Source: Dehalococcoidia bacterium (lineage in GTDB: Bacteria > Chloroflexota > Dehalococcoidia > Plut-88900). Taken from it: a stretch of DNA of 64,000 nt. A program made the position numbers and the translations under genes. Positions 5,235 to 59,768 of this stretch are shown here, one piece after another. Positions within the stretch are counted from its first letter, which is position 1, and every line of letters begins with the position of its first letter. Under the pieces are notes generated by a model. The model was not told the origin of the DNA, ran no database searches, and was given only the letters and a program-made list of their open reading frames with translations. Location: NCBI GenBank assembly GCA_965249275.1, contig CBDFLQ010000006.1, forward strand, positions 448,307 to 512,306, written 5' to 3'.

Positions 5235-8200
5235 GTAACTCGGCAACCTTCAAGCCCCGAGACCAAGCGGCCCGGGACACCATCGCCAGCAACCTGCAAG
5301 ACACCCTCTTCATCGAGGCCAGCGCCGGTACCGGCAAGACCACTAGCCTCGTCAATCGGGTGGTCAACATGATCGCCACTGGTACTGCCACCCTCGACAA
5401 GATCGCAGCCATAACCTTCACCGAGGCCGCCGCCGCCGAGCTTCGAGAGGGCATCCGCGAAGAGCTTGAGAAGGCCGCTGCCGATTGCGCACGCAGTACT
5501 GACGAGCGAGACCGTTGCCAACAAGGCATCTCCGATCTGGACCAGTCCGCTATCCAGACACTGCATGCCTTCGCTGCACTCCTCCTCCACGAGCGTCCCC
5601 TGGAAGCCGGACTGCCCCCATCTTTCGAGGTGAGCGACGAGATGAAATCTGGCGTAAGGTTTAATGAGGAGTGGGACAAGTGGCTTGATAGAGCACTGGA
5701 AGACCCCTCCCTGGCTGACCACCTCTCCCGAGCCCTCACCCTCGGCCTAACCTTGGATAAGCTCAAGGACATAGCCCAAGCATTTCATAACAACTACGAC
5801 TACATCGCCAACACCGTATTTGCATCCGAACCCCCCACCCCACAGGCGGCCCAGTCCCTAGTCGATGCCAGGGCCGGCCTGGAACATCTCTGCACCCTTT
5901 CTCAAATCGGCCCTGGCGACAAACTGTTTGACCTCGTCCAAAGCAAGCTGGGAACTATCCGCCGATTGAAGGATGGCAAACCAGGTTCCAATCTATCCTA
6001 TCGCTTGCTAAAACGGCTTCTACCCCTGAAGTGTGGCTTGGGTAGGCAATCGGACTGGAATACGGATTCGGAGACGCATGAGAACGGCTGCAAGAGTCTG
6101 AAAGATTTGCTCAAACTCCTTGACGAAAAAGTGAGTTCGGAGATCACAAGAACCCGACGCACCGCCCTGATGCCCATTCTCGAAGCCCTGCGGAGGTTCG
6201 CAATTGACTATGCCGAAAGGCGCCGCACCGAGGGCCGCGCCGAGTTCCAAGACCTTCTAGTCTGGGCCCGAGACCTCCTACGCGACGACCTGGAAGTTCG
6301 TGACCATTTCCAGAAACGTTTCTCCCATCTCCTCATCGACGAGGTCCAGGACACCGACCCTCTTCAAGCTGAGATAGCCATGTTCCTCGCCGAGGCCGTT
6401 CCCCACGGTCAGCCCCTCGCTCCACGCCCCGATTCCTGGCTCGACGTAACTCCTGAAAAGGGCAAGCTGTTCGTGGTCGGTGACCCCAAGCAGTCTATAT
6501 ATCGCTTCCGCCGCGCGGACGTCGAGCAGATGAATCAACTCCGGGAACGCATGGAAGCCGCCGGGGGTAATGCCCTGAGCCTCGTCCAGAATTTTCGCTC
6601 TCACCGGCCGATAGTTGCCTGGGTCAACCACCTCTTCTCCCAATGGATGGACGGAGATGAGACCCAGGCCCGATACGAGGAGATGCACCATCGCTGGGAT
6701 GCGGACAATACCGATCCCTTCCATCCCCGGGTCTGGGCCCTCTCCGACATCGAGACTAAGGACAACATAGGCGTAGTCCGCAATCAAGAGGCCGAAGACA
6801 TCGCGGATCTGCTCAGTCAGATGGTCGCCCAAAAATGGAAGGTGTTGGACAAGGAAAAGTCCGAAAAATCAGAGAACGCTACATATCGGTGTGTCGGCTA
6901 CTCCGACATCTGCATTCTCATGCCAACCCGCACTGGCCTCGCTAACCTCGAACGCGGGCTCGAAGCAAGAAATATCCCCTTTCGCCTCGAAAACGCCTCC
7001 CTCATATTCGAAACCCAGGAGGTAAGAGACCTTCTCAACTGCCTGAAAGCAATCGACGACCCAGCCAATCAGATTGCAGTAGTCGGCGCCCTCCGGTCTA
7101 CCGTGTTCGGCTGCAGCGACATAGACCTCCTCCTTTACCACGAGGCCCACGGCAGCTTCGACTACTCCCGTGTCCATGAGAATGCGCCTTCGGGTCTTAT
7201 CCCCGACGCCCTCACCGTCCTCCGCACTTATCACGACGCTAGGATGTGGGAGTCCCCCGGTTCCCTAATTGATCGGTTCATCCGGGACAGGGGTTTGATG
7301 GAATCTGCCCTGGCCCACCCGCGCAGCCGAGAGCAATGGCGCCGCTACCGCTTCATGGTGGAGCAGGCTTGGCGCTTCGCCGAGGGCGGCGGTAACTCTT
7401 TGCGAGCTTTCGTCGAATGGATCGAAGACCAGATCAACGAACGAGTCCGGGTTTCCGAGTCCCCCATCCCGGACTCTGACGAGGAAGCCGTACGAGTCAT
7501 GACCATCCACGGTGCGAAGGGTTTGGAATTTCCCGTCGTTGTCCTCACCGGCCTCAACTCCTCCGGCAGGCGGCAGAGTGACACCGTGATATTCGACCGA
7601 GTCAGGAAGCAGGTTGAGGTTGGCCTGGGCTCCAAAAATGACCGGAGCTCGACACCCGGCTACGAGGAGTTGGTAGAAAAAGAGAAACGGATGTGGGAGG
7701 CCGAGGACGTACGCCTGATGTACGTGGCCGCCACCCGCGCCCGTGACCATCTCATCCTTAGCCTTCGCCGTAAGGAGACCGGCAGCAGCTCAACTTCCAA
7801 AACCTTAGCTGCCACGATCTCCGAGACTATGCAAGGCTCGGGCCTCTGGGAGCCCGTTAACTTGGTAGACATGGACGAGTCCCATGGTTCCATTTCCGAC
7901 TCCATTTCCCAGGACCCTCCAAACTCCATCGACCATTCCATCGAGGCTCGTGACCGCTGGGTAATCGAAAGAGATAATTTGATAAAACGTATGGGTCGCC
8001 CGACCTATGTCTCCGCCACCTCCCTCGGTCGCCATGTCCAGGAACAGGAGGACAAGCCGGAACAGGAAAGCGATGAACCCTGGCGACGGGGCCGGGCCGG
8101 CACCTCAGTCGGGCGTGCCGTGCACGCTGTGCTTCAATCTATAGACCTAACCAAAGGCGCAGGCATCGGGGCCCGGTCTCGAGTTCAGGCTGCCGCTGAA

Positions 8201-12644: not shown

Positions 12645-12811
12645 TACCCGTCACCATCCCTTTCAGAGGCCAACTCCGAGCACCCTGGTTTTCCTCGGCC
12701 GATTATATCATTGCGAGGATAAGGAGTCTGCCTGAGTTTCTATGCAGAACAACTACGGAATCTACACAGGTCCCTATGATCCCGTTCATATAGAGGGGTG
12801 ACATCAACCCC

Positions 12812-12840
12812 TTGACTGCTTAAGACATTTGTTCTATTAT
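12812..12840 (+). promoter_or_regulatory. Sigma70-type promoter of noncoding element copy A (TTGACT-17 nt-TATTAT)
   Basis: TTGACT at 12812-12817, TATTAT at 12835-12840. The -35 and the 14 nt upstream of it (GTGACAYSAACCCC) are conserved in copy B. Confidence 0.55.
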
Positions 12841-12846
12841 TGGGCT

Positions 12847-13510
12847 GGTCTAGACCCGACACCCACCTTAAGGAGGTACCAAAAACTAGGGAAGCCCACC
12901 CGGCCCACCCGAGGACTCAACGCCCAAGCCCATCCCAACGGCCCATACACGGGGCCCGCGGCACAAGCGAAAGTCGCCATCTCCTCATCCCACCGGGTCT
13001 CGTGTCCCCTTCCCTGACCACCCAGGCGATGGAGGGTCCATCGACTCTACGCGGCACGCCCCCTTCCAGGGGCCCCTGCCGAATCGGTGCCCCCTATCAA
13101 GGGAGCGCCTATGCGCCGGCATCTACTTTGCCGGCGAAGCTAAACGGCCCGGCGTTACCGGGATTAGGGCCATCAAGCCCCTACGCGGCTCCACCGTCGT
13201 CACCATCGGCGAACTCCATTCCGCCCATGACGACTTCGAGCCGAATGCTGTCCCGCACAGCGGTCGAGCGCTGATGCGGGACGGATTGCCCCACCCAGGG
13301 ACGCCCTCGACACCGGCAAGTCCCCAAAGGCATGCGTGGGGATACGGCAGGACAGCCGCCGATGTGATAGATCCGCTGTGGTGGACCACAAGCGTCGGCG
13401 TAGGTGCCATAGTCATCCTTCATCAGAGTCCCGGACCTTCCATCGCCTTCCCCTCACCACTAGACAGAACCGAAACCCCACAATCGAAGATCCGCCTCTG
13501 GAGGACTGAA
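12847..13510 (+). ncRNA. Candidate large structured noncoding RNA, copy A (no family assigned)
   Basis: About 664 nt with no credible ORF. Block-wise homology to 51813-52474 without frame conservation. Long-range helix 13024-13039 / 13433-13448. Hairpin 12940-12956. The ends are estimates. Confidence 0.5.
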
Positions 13511-13682
13511 GAAAACGCCAGTGTGTCACTAATCTACCGAACGAGTACAGCCTATTGATATGCCCCGTACAAACCGGTATCTTTCATTGGATTCGCCAAC
13601 AGTCGGTATGGTCGGCGGAGGACCAACCGGCAGCTGGCAAGCCCGGCGCACCACCGATTTCAACGGGATGTCATAAGCACAA

Positions 13683-15350
13683 GTGCGCTTTAACTTAAAC
13701 TACGACATTCAAACCCTGCGCGGCGACCTCTTCGGAGGAGTCACCGCCGCCGTCGTCGGATTGCCCGTGGCCCTTGCCTTTGGGGTCGCATCGGGCCTCG
13801 GAGCCATCGCCGGTCTATACGGTGCCATCGCCGTCGGTTTCTTCGCCTCTGTTTTTGGCGGCACCAAGTCTCAGATATCCGGCCCCACCGGACCCATGGC
13901 TGTGGCCATGGCCGTCATAGTCACTACCCACTCCGATACCCTCGCCGAAGCATTCACCGTAGTCGTGATGGCAGGGGTCATTCAGATACTACTGGGTGTT
14001 CTGCGAATAGGGCGTTTTGTAGCCTACACGCCCTATTCGGTTATTTCCGGGTTCATGTCCGGCATTGGCATCATCATCATAATCCTGCAGATACTCCCCT
14101 TCCTCGGCGCAGACACATTAACAGGCGGTCCTAGAAGCGCTATCCGAGCCATACCCGACGCTATCCAAGCCTTCAACTCTAATTCTTTCGTCATCGCCAT
14201 CGTTACCCTTGCCGTAGGAGTATTATGGCCCCGCCAACTGAGAAGGTACCTCCCGCCTACCCTCGCTGCCCTCATTGTCGGCACAATCATCGGCGTCCTA
14301 TGGCTGACCGATACTCCAGTGATCGGTGAGGTTCCGTCCGGCCTCCCCGAATTTCAGATCCCGGTATTCGACGCCGGTCTGCTGGCCAGCGCCATTCAGC
14401 CTGCCCTTATCCTTGCCCTTCTCGGCTCCATAGACAGTCTGCTTACCTCCCTGATCGCCGACTCCATTACTCGAACCCAGCACAGCCCCAACCGTGAGCT
14501 GGTGGGACAAGGCATAGGAAACGCTATTGCGGGTCTGATAGGCGGCCTGCCCGGTGCGGGTGCTACCCTGGGTACAGTGGTCAACATCCGGGCGGGCGGC
14601 AGGTCTCGACTTTCCGGAGTATTGCGAGCGGCCATCCTACTTGCCTTGGTTCTCGGCCTCGGGAGATACGTCGAATCAATCCCTCACGCAGTCTTGGCCG
14701 GTATCCTCATGAAGGTCGGCTGGGACATAATTGATTGGCGTTTCCTCACCCGAATTCTCAAAGTCCAGAAAGAGCACCTCCTGGTGATGGTGATCACTCT
14801 CGCACTCACCGTTTTCCTTGACCTCGTCACCGCCGTGGCCATAGGTCTGATTGCTGCCGGTATGGCCGGCGCCCGTCAGTTCGAACGCTTCGAGCTGGAT
14901 CGGGTAATATCCACTCCGCTGCTGGACATCAGTTTCCTCGGTACGGAACCCGATAGCAAAGGCGATGAAGAAGTGGATCCTTTTTCTGCACGCGTCGGCC
15001 TCGTAGCCCTCAGGGGCACCTTCTCCGTTGCGTCGTCTAATAAGTTGGTCAGCACAATTAGCGCCGACATCCGAGACCACGAAGTAGTTATCTTCGACTT
15101 TTCCGATACCGAATATATAGACGACAGCGCTTCCCTTGTCGTCGAGTATATGATCGACGTCGCCTATGATCAGGATACCGACTGTATCGTGATGGGGCTC
15201 AAGGGGGCCCCCGCCACTAGCCTTCGCGCCCTTAACGTTCTGAAACGCGTCCCCTCGGAACGCTATGTCGATAACCTCGACGGCGCGCGGGAAACCGCAA
15301 AGCAAATCCTTCGGGAGAGAGAAAGCCGAACCATAGCCGCCCAAGCGTAA
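13683..15350 (+). CDS. SulP-family anion transporter with C-terminal STAS domain
   Basis: 555 aa with a GTG start. N-terminus LRGDLFGGVTAAVVGLPVALAFGVASG and SQISGPTGPMAV are SulP signatures. The soluble C-terminal part of about 120 aa looks like a STAS domain. Confidence 0.9.
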   Translation: MRFNLNYDIQTLRGDLFGGVTAAVVGLPVALAFGVASGLGAIAGLYGAIAVGFFASVFGGTKSQISGPTGPMAVAMAVIVTTHSDTLAEAFTVVVMAGVIQILLGVLRIGRFVAYTPYSVISGFMSGIGIIIIILQILPFLGADTLTGGPRSAIRAIPDAIQAFNSNSFVIAIVTLAVGVLWPRQLRRYLPPTLAALIVGTIIGVLWLTDTPVIGEVPSGLPEFQIPVFDAGLLASAIQPALILALLGSIDSLLTSLIADSITRTQHSPNRELVGQGIGNAIAGLIGGLPGAGATLGTVVNIRAGGRSRLSGVLRAAILLALVLGLGRYVESIPHAVLAGILMKVGWDIIDWRFLTRILKVQKEHLLVMVITLALTVFLDLVTAVAIGLIAAGMAGARQFERFELDRVISTPLLDISFLGTEPDSKGDEEVDPFSARVGLVALRGTFSVASSNKLVSTISADIRDHEVVIFDFSDTEYIDDSASLVVEYMIDVAYDQDTDCIVMGLKGAPATSLRALNVLKRVPSERYVDNLDGARETAKQILRERESRTIAAQA

Positions 15351-18978: not shown

Positions 18979-19063
18979 GCGGAAGTGTCGGAATCGGTAG
19001 ACGAGCATGATTTAGGATCATGTGCCTTCGGGCGTGTGGGTTCGAGTCCCACCTTCCGCACCA
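18979..19063 (+). tRNA. tRNA-Leu (anticodon UAG), type II with long variable arm, CCA encoded
   Basis: Acceptor GCGGAAG/CTTCCGC. D stem TCG/CGA. Anticodon stem CATGA/TCATG with loop TTTAGGA. Variable arm GCC-TTCG-GGC. T arm GTGGG-TTCGAGT-CCCAC. Discriminator A followed by CCA. Confidence 0.93.
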
Positions 19064-29240: not shown

Positions 29241-29292
29241 ATCCCTGCATGACCTTCCCCCCTCGAGGGTGGCGCATTCCGCTCGCCCTGAG

Positions 29293-29441
29293 CAGAGTCG
29301 AAGGGTCTCAAGAGCGGAATGGGCGGGGCGTCCCCCTCCCCCATGATGAGTCGCAGATACGCCGAGGCGTGACATTTGCAGAATCTGTGTTGGAGGGGCC
29401 GGGGCCGCTCGTGCTGAGCCCGTCGAAGTATGAGCGGGGGG
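29293..29441 (+). repeat. Composite array of intergenic repeat modules B, C and A
   Basis: Module B at 29293-29340 matches 51714-58. Module C at 29331-29380. Module A at 29401-29441. The array generates the spurious ORF 29096..29545. Confidence 0.7.
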
Positions 29442-59642: not shown

Positions 59643-59768
59643 GGCACCCGGCAGCGTCCTATTTTCCACGGAGGGTTGCCCCTCTAGTATCGTCGGCGCA
59701 GAGGTGTTTCACTTCCGTGTTCGGAATGAGAACGGGTGGGCCCACCTCGCTATAGCCACCGCAGTGCC
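59643..59768 (-). rRNA. rrf: 5S ribosomal RNA
   Basis: The reverse complement reads ...GCGAGGUGGGCCCACCCGUUCUCAUUCCGAACACGGAAGUGAAACACCUCUGCGCCGACGAUACU..., with helix I CGGUGGC/GCUGCCG. Ends are good to about 5 nt. Confidence 0.9.

Follow-up and report, generated by a model that had tools for sequence, protein, structure and literature searches.

Dispersed transposon-like cassettes in sponge-associated Dehalococcoidia that probably carry a structured RNA gene

The Dehalococcoidia DNA analysed here (64 kb in all, and called the window below) holds in two places an element with a promoter, a series of shared sequence blocks and no evident protein product, which the initial annotation took for a candidate large structured RNA. 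What is this element, and is the RNA that it seems to specify its product or a by-product of something else? Caution is in order, since what looks like a "novel large RNA" when a window holds two copies may be one repeat family of a repeat-rich genome.

Anatomy of the two copies

All of the blocks that had been listed for the two regions were recovered in both copies, A and B, at the same positions. In exact and near-exact searches with the core, the 3' box and the promoter block, each block gave two hits in the window and none in its shuffles; the core, GAGGACTCAACGYCCAAGCCCATCCCAA, lies at 12911-12938 in copy A and 51888-51915 in copy B, and an nhmmer profile search of the 64 kb returned exactly two copies. 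The region given for copy A (12798-13510) is real, but its true extent is 12777-13549, a complete unit of 773 bp whose homology to other copies begins at 12777. Terminal inverted repeats (TIRs), a target-site duplication (TSD) and a high copy number had been absent from that description.

On the plus strand, copy A opens with a left TIR, TGATCCCGTTCATATAGAGGGGTGACA (12777-12803), that has one mismatch against the family consensus, and a near-consensus sigma-70 promoter sits immediately within this left end (TTGACT-17-TATTAT, 12812-12840). There follow a Shine-Dalgarno-like AAGGAGG (12870-12876), at least 90% conserved and lacking a start codon, the near-invariant C/A-rich core GAGGACTCAACGCCCAAGCCCATCCCAA, a covarying hairpin GGCCC-ATACAC-GGGCC (12940-12956) and an anti-SD-like segment GCCATCTCCTCA (12976-12987). 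The two arms of a long-range helix (13024-13039 and 13433-13448), recognized by complementarity and covariation, enclose a fast-evolving structured central domain of class 1 (13040-13432), and a CA-rich, G-poor 3' tail (13449-13506) bearing one REP-like hairpin module, TCCGCCTCTGGAGGA (13491-13505), leads to a right TIR, TGTCACTAATCTACCGAACGAGTACA (13524-13549), with 0 mismatches against the consensus. The element is bracketed by CCCTA (12772-12776) and GCCTA (13550-13554), which agree at 4/5 positions. A host -35-like hexamer lies 5 bp beyond its right end, as part of a promoter-like site outside the element (TTGATA-17-TATCTT, 13555-13583, plus strand) that would serve a SulP-type ORF at 13683-15350.

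Copy B, also on the plus strand, has lost both outer ends and keeps the promoter and RNA region. An inner left-end remnant, GTGACACGAACCCC, with the promoter spans 51763-51806, the outer TIR being absent; the promoter itself is TTGACT-18-TATATT (51777-51806), followed by AAGGAGG (51842-51848), the near-invariant core, the hairpin GGGCGGC-CCACAC-GCCGCCC (51917-51936), the anti-SD-like GCCATCTCCTCA (51956-51967), the helix arms (52006/52007-52022 and 52389-52404/52405), a central domain (52023-52388) of a class other than that of copy A, common to L022 and L029, and a CA-rich tail (52405-52474) with one hairpin module (52454-52468) and no right TIR. The near-consensus promoters attributed to the two copies were confirmed, each with 10/12 consensus matches, and, nearly as first reported, the -10 box is separated from the 3' box end by ~671 nt in copy A as compared with 668 nt in copy B.

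A dispersed family and its insertion sites

Beyond the window, we found 76 exact-core copies in seven Dehalococcoidia MAG species (23, 22, 18, 7, 2, 2 and 2 per genome), dispersed along chromosomes of 3.0-3.4 Mb that hold up to 23 such copies each; all were retrieved via the core sequence, so that the invariance of the core is partly a matter of ascertainment. Six further copies occur in the Petrosia ficiformis sponge metagenome LXNJ, and none was present in the viral contigs searched. The closest relatives of copy A (~92% identity) end at the element edges. In synteny comparisons with reference genomes the flanks of the window's elements were unmatched, and only an unrelated stretch at 54.4-56.5 kb matched L063. 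The family is a lineage-restricted, high-copy set of 0.7-1.0-kb cassettes in a few sponge-associated Dehalococcoidia, of which our literature searches found no description.

Intact copies end in imperfect 27-bp TG...CA TIRs (end pair TGRTCCCGTTC...GAACGAGTACA) whose arms share ~17/27 positions, or ~63% identity, namely TG, C.CGTTC, TAG and GTGACA. Both ends are present in 19 family members, with 699-1038 bp between the TIR ends; in these the flanking 5-mers match at 4.0 of 5 positions, as against 1.47±0.28 expected when flanks are permuted among loci (n = 19), and eight of the 19 have a perfect 5-bp TSD. In intact copies the right end is followed, at a distance of 5 bp, by a host -35 hexamer of like orientation: TTGAC stands exactly 5 nt past the right end in 9/31 copies (background 0.0009 per position), and 9 more of the 31 have 4/5 matches to TTGAC at that spacing. 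A solo left end was also encountered, upstream of groES in L013.

A weakly IS481/IS3-like rve transposase, the only one seen near the elements, is encoded in the same genomes, and its IS adjoins three of the elements, generates 5-bp TSDs and also inserts beside TTGAC; its ends differ from the element TIRs, so it is not supported as the autonomous partner. Within ±4 kb of the 76 copies we found neither an autonomous partner with matching TIRs nor a recurrent protein gene, only paralog-rich enzyme families.

Conservation and folding of the interior

Consistent with the initial annotation, which had described a promoter-driven element lacking an ORF, 67/69 copies have an intact promoter, TTGACN-17/18-TAnnnT, in spite of a spacer and leader that exist in four unrelated versions. 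The same shared block is read as AHPRTQRPSPSQ and as PHEDSTSKPIPK in the two copies, both readings being present in the ORF lists, so that the frame does differ between them. The promoter hexamers, AAGGAGGAACC and the blocks that lie outside the search pattern stay at least 90% conserved, while copies diverge by 15-50% in the leader and central domain.

The 16-bp long-range pairing that had been proposed is real in both copies (94% complementary in each), as is the replacement of a G.U pair in A by A-U in B (column pair 12-37). Across the family this helix is conserved at 15-16 bp and closes the structured central domain; 96.3% of its cells are paired, and 40 cells show double changes, against 16.9±2.8 in shuffles, 0/500 of which were as high. 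The hairpin directly after CATCCCAA, formed by GGCCC/GGGCC in A and GGGCGGC/GCCGCCC in B, proved compensatory as suspected and covaries across variants (21 double-change cells among 36 distinct variants versus 9.3±2.1; 0/500 shuffles as high). In central domains of class 1, 90.3% of 100 pairs are paired as compared with ~40% in slid controls, and 19 of the pairs show double changes. Covariation in helix, hairpin and central domain thus exceeds these shuffled and slid controls; relatedness is not corrected for in the controls, and the effect of purifying selection could be imitated by gene conversion. The minimum free energy z-scores were -4.4 and -6.2, the latter for copy B.

Nearer the 5' end, RNAalifold predicts that the GGAGG of AAGGAGG pairs with the CYUUC of CCCCTTCCC, and that the UCCUC of GCCATCTCCTCA pairs with the GAGGA at the start of the core. 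The consensus in this domain is weak and has no compensatory pairs, because the paired segments, P1 and P2, are invariant in sequence. In some lineages the core module is tandemly duplicated together with both halves of the GAGGA/UCCUC pairing, and the number of GGAGG/GAGGA motifs ranges from 2 to 12 per element (mean 5). By comparison, CsrB/RsmZ-type protein-sponge RNAs are marked by numerous GGA motifs in the loops of hairpins and by a CsrA homolog in their genome. The 3' domain is composed of 38% C, 34% A and 16% G, and its tail has 0-5 hairpin modules in other copies. The central domain comes in ~8 classes that have been swapped among copies at orthologous sites, such that orthologous sites carry differing classes. 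A DNA inversion switch using the helix arms as inverted repeats was considered and rejected; no central domain matches another in reverse.

Because of the TIRs and TSDs, the copy number, the placement beside -35 hexamers and the module swaps, we think it probable that these are non-autonomous transposon-like cassettes whose only cargo is a promoter-driven, structured non-coding RNA gene of ~650 nt. Under such a scheme, the cassette would be spread by a DDE transposase of the IS3/IS481 kind supplied in trans, and the RNA, transcribed from its own promoter, would be the selected product. A protein or the ribosome could bind to a platform formed by the single-stranded, invariant core together with the recurring GGAGG/GAGGA motifs, the central domain may serve as a tolerant scaffold, and the G-poor tail with its hairpins might end or stabilize the transcript, by Rho loading, before the neighbouring host promoter is reached. 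For the binding partner and for Rho-dependent termination we offer pure inference.

Competing explanations and known systems

One could instead envision a purely selfish, MITE-like repeat with a folded interior of no RNA function, its promoter and AAGGAGG left over from the promoter and ribosome-binding site of a parent IS transposase and its conservation due to recent amplification and gene conversion. The TIRs, TSDs, high copy number and lack of an ORF are what such a repeat would show, a promoter and SD just within the left end is the layout of an IS, mosaic exchange among copies shows that gene conversion is active, and MITE transcripts generally fold stably (PMC10969869). However, the promoter hexamers and blocks such as AAGGAGGAACC have been held nearly constant against the divergence around them, the stems change by compensatory substitutions, and the element is GC-rich and larger than typical MITEs. 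Copies without TIRs, e.g., copy B, moreover keep an intact promoter and RNA; that the RNA outlasts the ends of the transposon indicates that it is itself under selection. We regard the selfish repeat as possible but on the whole unlikely.

Alternatively, the element may be a mobile cis-regulatory module whose RNA acts in cis only. Once inserted 5 bp before a host -35, it would alter expression of the co-oriented gene downstream, either by adding a promoter that is followed by a long, structured 5' leader or by serving as an insulator. The abutment of the right end on TTGAC or its near-matches is in keeping with this, as are the co-orientation of 23 of the 27 called ORFs downstream of copies with a right TIR, the several orthologous pairs that share only their downstream flank, and the absence of any intrinsic terminator from the 3' end. 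Yet at least six copies are followed by Pfam-confirmed convergent genes, and downstream genes retain promoter-like sites and an SD of their own, which together rule out an obligate 5' leader or riboswitch and speak for a free-standing unit. The neighbours across the family, too, belong to functionally unrelated, paralog-rich families. In the window, with names taken from the translations, copy A lies beside an ammonium-transporter-like and the SulP-type ORF, whereas beside copy B there are a small membrane ORF and one resembling an amidohydrolase. A conserved structure of 650 nt with an invariant core also far exceeds what a promoter donor would need, and we hold a regulatory role of this kind to be rather unlikely.

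A bolder proposal, and a decidedly unlikely one, is that the RNA is the obligatory partner of a promoter-targeting DDE transposition system, or else a member of a new class of large RNP or ribozyme RNAs that has spread through the genome by hitch-hiking on a transposon. In the former case each cassette would give a transcript whose invariant core binds the transposase supplied in trans, or else a host factor, and tethers it to the element or to -35 regions. Quite improbable is the RNA as a transposition cofactor that, by analogy with the omega, bridge and CRISPR RNAs of other transposons, would bring or direct a transposase encoded in trans, either to the element or to targets at promoters. 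In its favour, the mobile cassette contains nothing but a structured RNA with an invariant core, its promoter is kept in nearly every copy, and the choice of targets, beside -35 hexamers, is highly specific; against this, the central-domain classes are few and do not track insertion sites, no complementarity of the core to ends or targets was noticed by eye on reading the sequences, no associated protein gene recurs within the flanks surveyed, and the ends of known RNA-guided systems are built differently.

The large structured RNA of the initial annotation, with two chromosomal paralogs in the manner of OLE, GOLLD or ROOL and unrelated to mobile DNA, would account for the size, the promoter, the covariation and the lack of an Rfam match, but the two-copy picture is contradicted by the up to 23 copies per genome, the TIRs, the TSDs and the non-syntenic positions, and it is now very improbable. 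The idea of an overlooked protein-coding gene, or of a family of decayed pseudogenes, for which the strong AAGGAGG and a 333-codon stop-free frame containing copy B might speak, has virtually no chance of being correct and is ruled out by the want of any ATG, GTG or TTG 4-14 nt past AAGGAGG (0/69 copies), a stop-free frame from SD to tail in just 8/66 copies, indels that are mostly not multiples of three, substitutions spread evenly over codon positions and the absence of a Pfam match to element ORFs at E≤1, the long open frame of copy B being due to a G/T-poor composition; conservation at the nucleotide level, as first claimed, therefore stands.

Non-autonomous bacterial transposons are usually viewed as short, decaying DNA, whereas here the cargo would be a 650-nt RNA gene. 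Insertion at exactly 5 bp before a -35 hexamer is unusual among bacterial target specificities, and it could remodel promoters throughout the genome of a symbiont. If the obligatory-partner reading were true, the element would represent a new kind of RNA-assisted transposon. HEARO and omega RNAs, which were earlier orphan RNAs of mobile elements, proved to be the guide RNAs of new enzyme systems.

Among known systems, MITEs and mobile insertion cassettes, which an IS transposase mobilizes in trans, come close to the element. They too have TIRs at both ends and a TSD, contain neither a transposase nor any other protein gene, lie scattered between genes in tens of copies, give transcripts that fold stably and lose their ends little by little as copies age; sRNAs even arise from some MITEs, e.g., Coxiella QMITE1 (PMC10969869). 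In contrast to MITEs, which are typically <500 bp (PMC10969869) and AT-rich, the element is GC-rich and measures 0.7-1.0 kb (699-1038 bp; 773 bp in copy A), retains an internal near-consensus promoter, inserts immediately beside -35 hexamers, and has an interior of several domains, in which helices covary, the core is invariant and the central domain occurs in interchangeable classes. IStrons, chimeras of a group I intron and an IS200/605-type element, likewise join a large structured RNA to a DNA transposon (PMC4227781). Unlike IStrons, which self-splice from host transcripts, the element has TIR/TSD ends, its own promoter and intergenic targets, and it has no Rfam group I intron match, no internal transposase and no ORF with a Pfam domain.

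The HEARO/omega RNAs (IscB-TnpB, IS200/605) and the IS110 bridge RNAs are long structured ncRNAs present in many copies on mobile elements, and they too were first noticed as orphan RNA motifs. The element differs from them in having TIRs and TSDs, which the HEARO/omega and IS110 bridge families are not known to have; it gave no Rfam HEARO match, neither iscB nor tnpB nor a gene for an IS110 recombinase lies next to it, and no guide-like segment was identified; no nuclease or recombinase recurs near the 76 copies. The IS3 and IS481 families have TG...CA termini and a short TSD, and the element shares both, together with a promoter and ribosome-binding site within the left end, but it has no transposase ORF. 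The failure of the first reading to match a known RNA family was upheld by Rfam, in which no family reached the gathering threshold in the window or came near it: permissive scans of both copies gave best E-values of 0.99-5, to unrelated small families only, and the covariance models for OLE, GOLLD, ROOL, HEARO, raiA, group I and II introns, riboswitches and the T-box had no match. With OLE, GOLLD, ROOL and raiA the element has in common its length, a complex multi-helix fold and a strong promoter; beyond the lack of a covariance-model match, what sets it apart from them is its high copy number, its transposon ends and its narrow host range.

Copies, range and layout of the element

The two copies of the element, A (12777-13549) and B (51763-52474), share sequence blocks seen by direct reading and by alignment of both regions. 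In the 64-kb window each block has just two occurrences, and in shuffled sequence none; this holds for the 28-nt core located by sequence search (12911-12938 in A, 51888-51915 in B), for the 3′ box and for the block upstream of the -35, and a profile search found no third copy in the window. Consistent with the initial annotation, a promoter scan recovered TTGACT-17-TATTAT at 12812-12840 (A) and TTGACT-18-TATATT at 51777-51806 (B), each scoring 10/12, the reading frame differs between copies (one block has two different translations in the ORF lists), and neither copy matches any Rfam family, even at E≤10. The Rfam matches in the window, a 5S rRNA gene (59646-59763, minus strand, 86.9 bits) and an 82-nt tRNA with a long variable arm (18979-19060, plus strand, 57.6 bits), both lie outside the copies. 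The 4.2 kb of the window that lie upstream of the 5S gene contain no 23S rRNA match, and the 5S gene appears to be unlinked here from the large-subunit rRNA gene.

The family is high-copy and lineage-restricted. Every member was gathered via the core sequence, by scanning one genome per species with the pattern TCAACGNCCAAGCCCATCCC; since only exact 19-base matches were accepted, all counts are lower bounds. The scan returned 86 stretches, of which 76 are real copies, all in seven Dehalococcoidia MAGs (at least 23, 22, 18, 7, 2, 2 and 2 copies, dispersed over chromosomes of 3.0-3.4 Mb), and ten are chance matches in unrelated taxa with no other block present. The JGI metagenome collection held only six core matches, all in WGS project LXNJ, the microbial metagenome of the sponge Petrosia ficiformis (PMC5099237), and viral contigs searched for the core held no copy.

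About 66 full copies define the layout. A block ending in AGTGACAYNAACCCC lies to the left of the promoter (TTGACN-17/18 nt-TAnnnT), which is intact in 67/69 copies and is kept despite a spacer and leader in four unrelated versions. AAGGAGGAACC lies 29-39 nt beyond the promoter, followed by a C/A-rich stretch that closes with the near-invariant GAGGACTCAACGYCCAAGCCCATCCCAA, a hairpin with a stem variable by copy (GGCC/GGCC, GGCCC/GGGCC, GGTCGC/GCGACC, GGGCGGC/GCCGCCC or GGGCAGC/GCTGCCC), GCGGCWCAAGC...GCCATCTCCTCA...CCCCTTCCC with CAGGCGATGGAAG next, the G+C-balanced central domain of 300-490 nt, CTTCCATCGCC, and a CA-rich, G-poor 3′ tail (C 38%, A 34%, G 16%) in which zero to five small tandem hairpins, TCCGCC-NNN-GGNGGA, precede CTGAAKAAAA. 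Each element has 2-12 GGAGG/GAGGA motifs. The whole module that starts at GAGGA, includes the core and ends at UCCUC is tandemly doubled in the OY764147 and CBDBLV lineages; the duplicates, spanning GAGGA-core-hairpin-...-UCCUC, are at L010, L023, L030, L033, L063, L065, L068 and L084, with CCCTAGCCC as second core in place of CCCAAGCCC and extra small hairpins (CCCCCGAGNNGTCGGGGG) inserted in these lineages.

The hairpin units of the tail, often after GGAACA and single or in tandem up to about five (13491-13505, 52454-52468 and also 52230-52246 in the window; elsewhere L014, L025, L047, L057 and L068), are found too in the 5′ domain of some copies and in element-free intergenic regions; they are a separate REP-like repeat family nesting into the cassette. 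A short palindromic repeat (...TTCCGCTCGCCCTGAGCAGAGTCGAAGGGTCTCAAGAGCGGAATGGG...) occupies 29270-29340 and 51700-51760 and recurs upstream of many elements in other genomes, and in many copies a third repeat, rich in G (GAGAGGGGGATYAAGGGGGTGAGGGTTCCCCGG...), lies nested in the interval from the left terminal inverted repeat (TIR) to the promoter. Intergenic DNA in these genomes is a mosaic of nested repeats.

Ends and target sites

The element is bounded like a transposon. Alignment of copy A with its nearest relatives (L062, L082 and L011; about 92% identity) is confined to 12777 to about 13550, and its left end (12777-12803, TGATCCCGTTCATATAGAGGGGTGACA) and right end (13524-13549, TGTCACTAATCTACCGAACGAGTACA), both read inward, have TG, C.CGTTC, TAG and GTGACA in common; since both start with TG, the termini are 5′-TG...CA-3′. 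Among 19 two-ended copies the 5-nt flanks match at a mean of 4.0/5 positions, eight of them perfectly, as compared to 1.47±0.28 (maximum 2.58 in 2000 permutations) when flanks are paired across loci; those of copy A are CCCTA/GCCTA. Other small repeats, nested in between, place the left end 113-278 nt ahead of the promoter in three copies, where the flanking 5-mers are perfect in L047 and L074 and match at 3/5 in L072. TTGAC directly follows the right-end duplication in 9/31 copies, with a 4/5 match in nine more (background 0.0009 per position); the site downstream of copy A is TTGATA-17-TATCTT (13555-13583), ahead of a SulP-type ORF at 13683. Copy B, with no outer end on either side, is immobilised and retains the promoter and full RNA.

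Several loci show variants of these ends. A solo left end (TGATCCCGTTCACATAGAGGGGTGACATCACCCCCTTG) is found on the minus strand of L013, at about 6178-6500, directly before a promoter-like site, a CIRCE operator (TTAGCACTC-N9-GAGTGCTAA) and a groES gene; it resembles an internal-deletion scar, which a deletion between the element -35 and the host -35 would yield. L058 has two tandem copies of the right-end module (GTGTGTCAC...GAGTACA), about 10 nt apart; at the orthologous site of L012 and L074 the element-flanking repeat is 11 bp instead of 5 bp (CTCCCTAGTCC on both sides in L012); and the left flank of L062 reads GTACA-TGCTT ahead of the left end, which mimics the junction of a right end with a left end. 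In OZ244800.1, three elements (L042, L071 and L073) carry at the same spot, directly upstream of the promoter between ACCCC and the -35 TTGAC, a ~1.33-kb insertion sequence 99.9% identical in all three, with 5-bp duplications ACCCC/ACCTC; its 433-aa product contains an rve integrase-core domain and is weakly similar to IS481/IS3. The insertion sequence shares the TTGAC-adjoining target habit of the cassette, and its ends (CGTGCGACCTCAAAATTGATGGTTACCG...) are unrelated.

RNA fold and module exchange

The fold is supported by covariation. The arm sequence of the long-range helix in the initial annotation (13024-13039 with 13433-13448 in A; 52007-52022 with 52389-52404 in B) occurs there in both orientations, and the pair is the top inverted-repeat match in each copy (16-17 nt with 94% complementarity, the arms separated by 393 nt in A and 366 nt in B). 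Single-RNA folding against shuffles gave z-scores of -4.4 and -6.2, and in both predicted folds this helix is kept and closes a multi-branched domain. Over 38 distinct arm pairs, 96.3% of cells in its 15 pairs are paired (31-50% when slid), with 40 double-change cells as compared to 16.9±2.8 in shuffles (0/500 as high), relatedness being ignored and neither shuffles nor E-values modelling phylogeny or gene conversion; the inner three pairs alternate between GUC/GAC and ACG/CGU. The hairpin after CATCCCAA, wholly missing from one copy, does vary in the compensatory manner suggested by its differing stems in A and B: 36 distinct variants give 21 double-change cells against 9.3±2.1 (0/500 shuffles, relatedness again ignored). 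The seven central domains of class 1, including that of copy A, are 90.3% paired (about 40% when slid), with double changes in 19/100 pairs versus 8.1±2.1 (0/500 shuffles), a comparison that ignores relatedness and takes its structure from the alignment used to test it. In the 5′ domain, RNAalifold predicts pairing of the GGAGG of the SD-like box with CYUUC and of the GAGGA of the core with UCCUC; these segments are invariant, hence no covariation signal is available for either, and the module duplication, keeping both halves, lends the predicted GAGGA/UCCUC pairing indirect support.

Central domains fall into about eight classes, each present in several genomes. Copies at one orthologous site, with flanks 82-98% identical, may bear entirely different classes, or entirely different 5′ and 3′ parts, central-domain identity being 56% for L012/L074, 48% for L039/L056 and 47% for L054/L059; conversely, L006/L028 have central domains 96% identical and 5′ domains just 86% identical. 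Copies therefore swap modules, presumably via recombination through the conserved blocks, and no central domain was reverse-oriented among the copies compared.

Origin and possible role

We consider it probable that the element is a trans-mobilised cassette whose selected product is a structured RNA made from its own promoter, the DNA-level and structured non-coding RNA parts being much firmer than the proposed RNA role. The sequences show transposon ends with target duplications, a promoter conserved across the family, a lack of coding capacity, a multi-domain fold with covarying pairs, a core that is invariant and single-stranded, and an RNA part that persists in copies without ends. TG...CA ends with short duplications are typical of IS3/IS481-type elements, and a DDE transposase supplied in trans may have spread the cassette. 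Judging from sequence, the promoter would drive the RNA on which selection acts; the invariant core and GGAGG/GAGGA motifs would form a platform to which a protein or the 30S subunit binds, and the central domain would be a tolerant scaffold. The transcript may be ended or stabilised by its G-poor tail and hairpins, plausibly via Rho, proposed because no intrinsic terminator was seen at the 3′ end of either window copy.

Alternatively, one could envision a purely selfish repeat, to which transposon ends, target duplications and the lack of coding capacity would equally belong; we think this unlikely, given the conserved promoter, the compensatory changes in the stems and the RNA part kept by copies without ends. 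Somewhat less likely again is a mobile cis-regulatory module: the next ORF is co-oriented in 23/27 calls for copies with a right end, and six copies have a convergent Pfam-confirmed gene within 4-226 nt downstream (a NuoN-type antiporter subunit, two luciferase-like monooxygenases, a class-III aminotransferase, a family-III CoA-transferase and an MFS transporter). These convergent neighbours, and co-oriented downstream genes with their own promoter and SD, rule out an obligate leader. A few enzyme families rich in paralogs prevail among the genes within ±4 kb of the 76 loci, whether through enrichment or as genome background: amidohydrolase-like at 14 loci, family-III CoA-transferase at 13 and luciferase-like monooxygenase at 6, then M24 peptidase/creatinase-like, SDR, amidase and MFS, named by reading representative sequences and Pfam-checked for CoA-transferase, luciferase-like monooxygenase and MFS only.

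It is improbable that the RNA is a cofactor of transposition. The two-copy chromosomal RNA of the initial annotation is contradicted by 76 copies in seven MAGs and by the transposon-like ends, and is very improbable. The element is non-coding: ATG/GTG/TTG occurs 4-14 nt past AAGGAGG in 0/69 copies, only 8/66 have a stop-free frame from AAGGAGG to the tail, Pfam gives no match at E≤1 for the ORFs that overlap the two window copies, and within central-domain classes indels are mostly non-multiples of three (e.g., 0/72/21 for 0, 1 and 2 mod 3), variable columns are even across the three codon positions and the longest ORFs are not conserved. Hidden coding, to which the 333-codon open frame over copy B might point, is the least credible reading, that frame being due to a composition poor in G and T.

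Among known systems, the cassette RNA matches none of the large RNAs in Rfam. Its likeness to omega, HEARO and bridge RNAs is general only, that of a large structured RNA on mobile DNA, and the cassette lacks their adjacent tnpB, iscB or recombinase gene and their ends without TIR or TSD; the likeness to IStrons is of the same general kind, a group I core being absent from the cassette. The cassette has the defining features of MITE-like non-autonomous elements, size excepted, and differs from the MITEs reviewed in PMC10969869 in being 0.7-1.0 kb and GC-rich, in targeting -35 hexamers, and in having a conserved internal promoter and an RNA fold that appears to be under selection.
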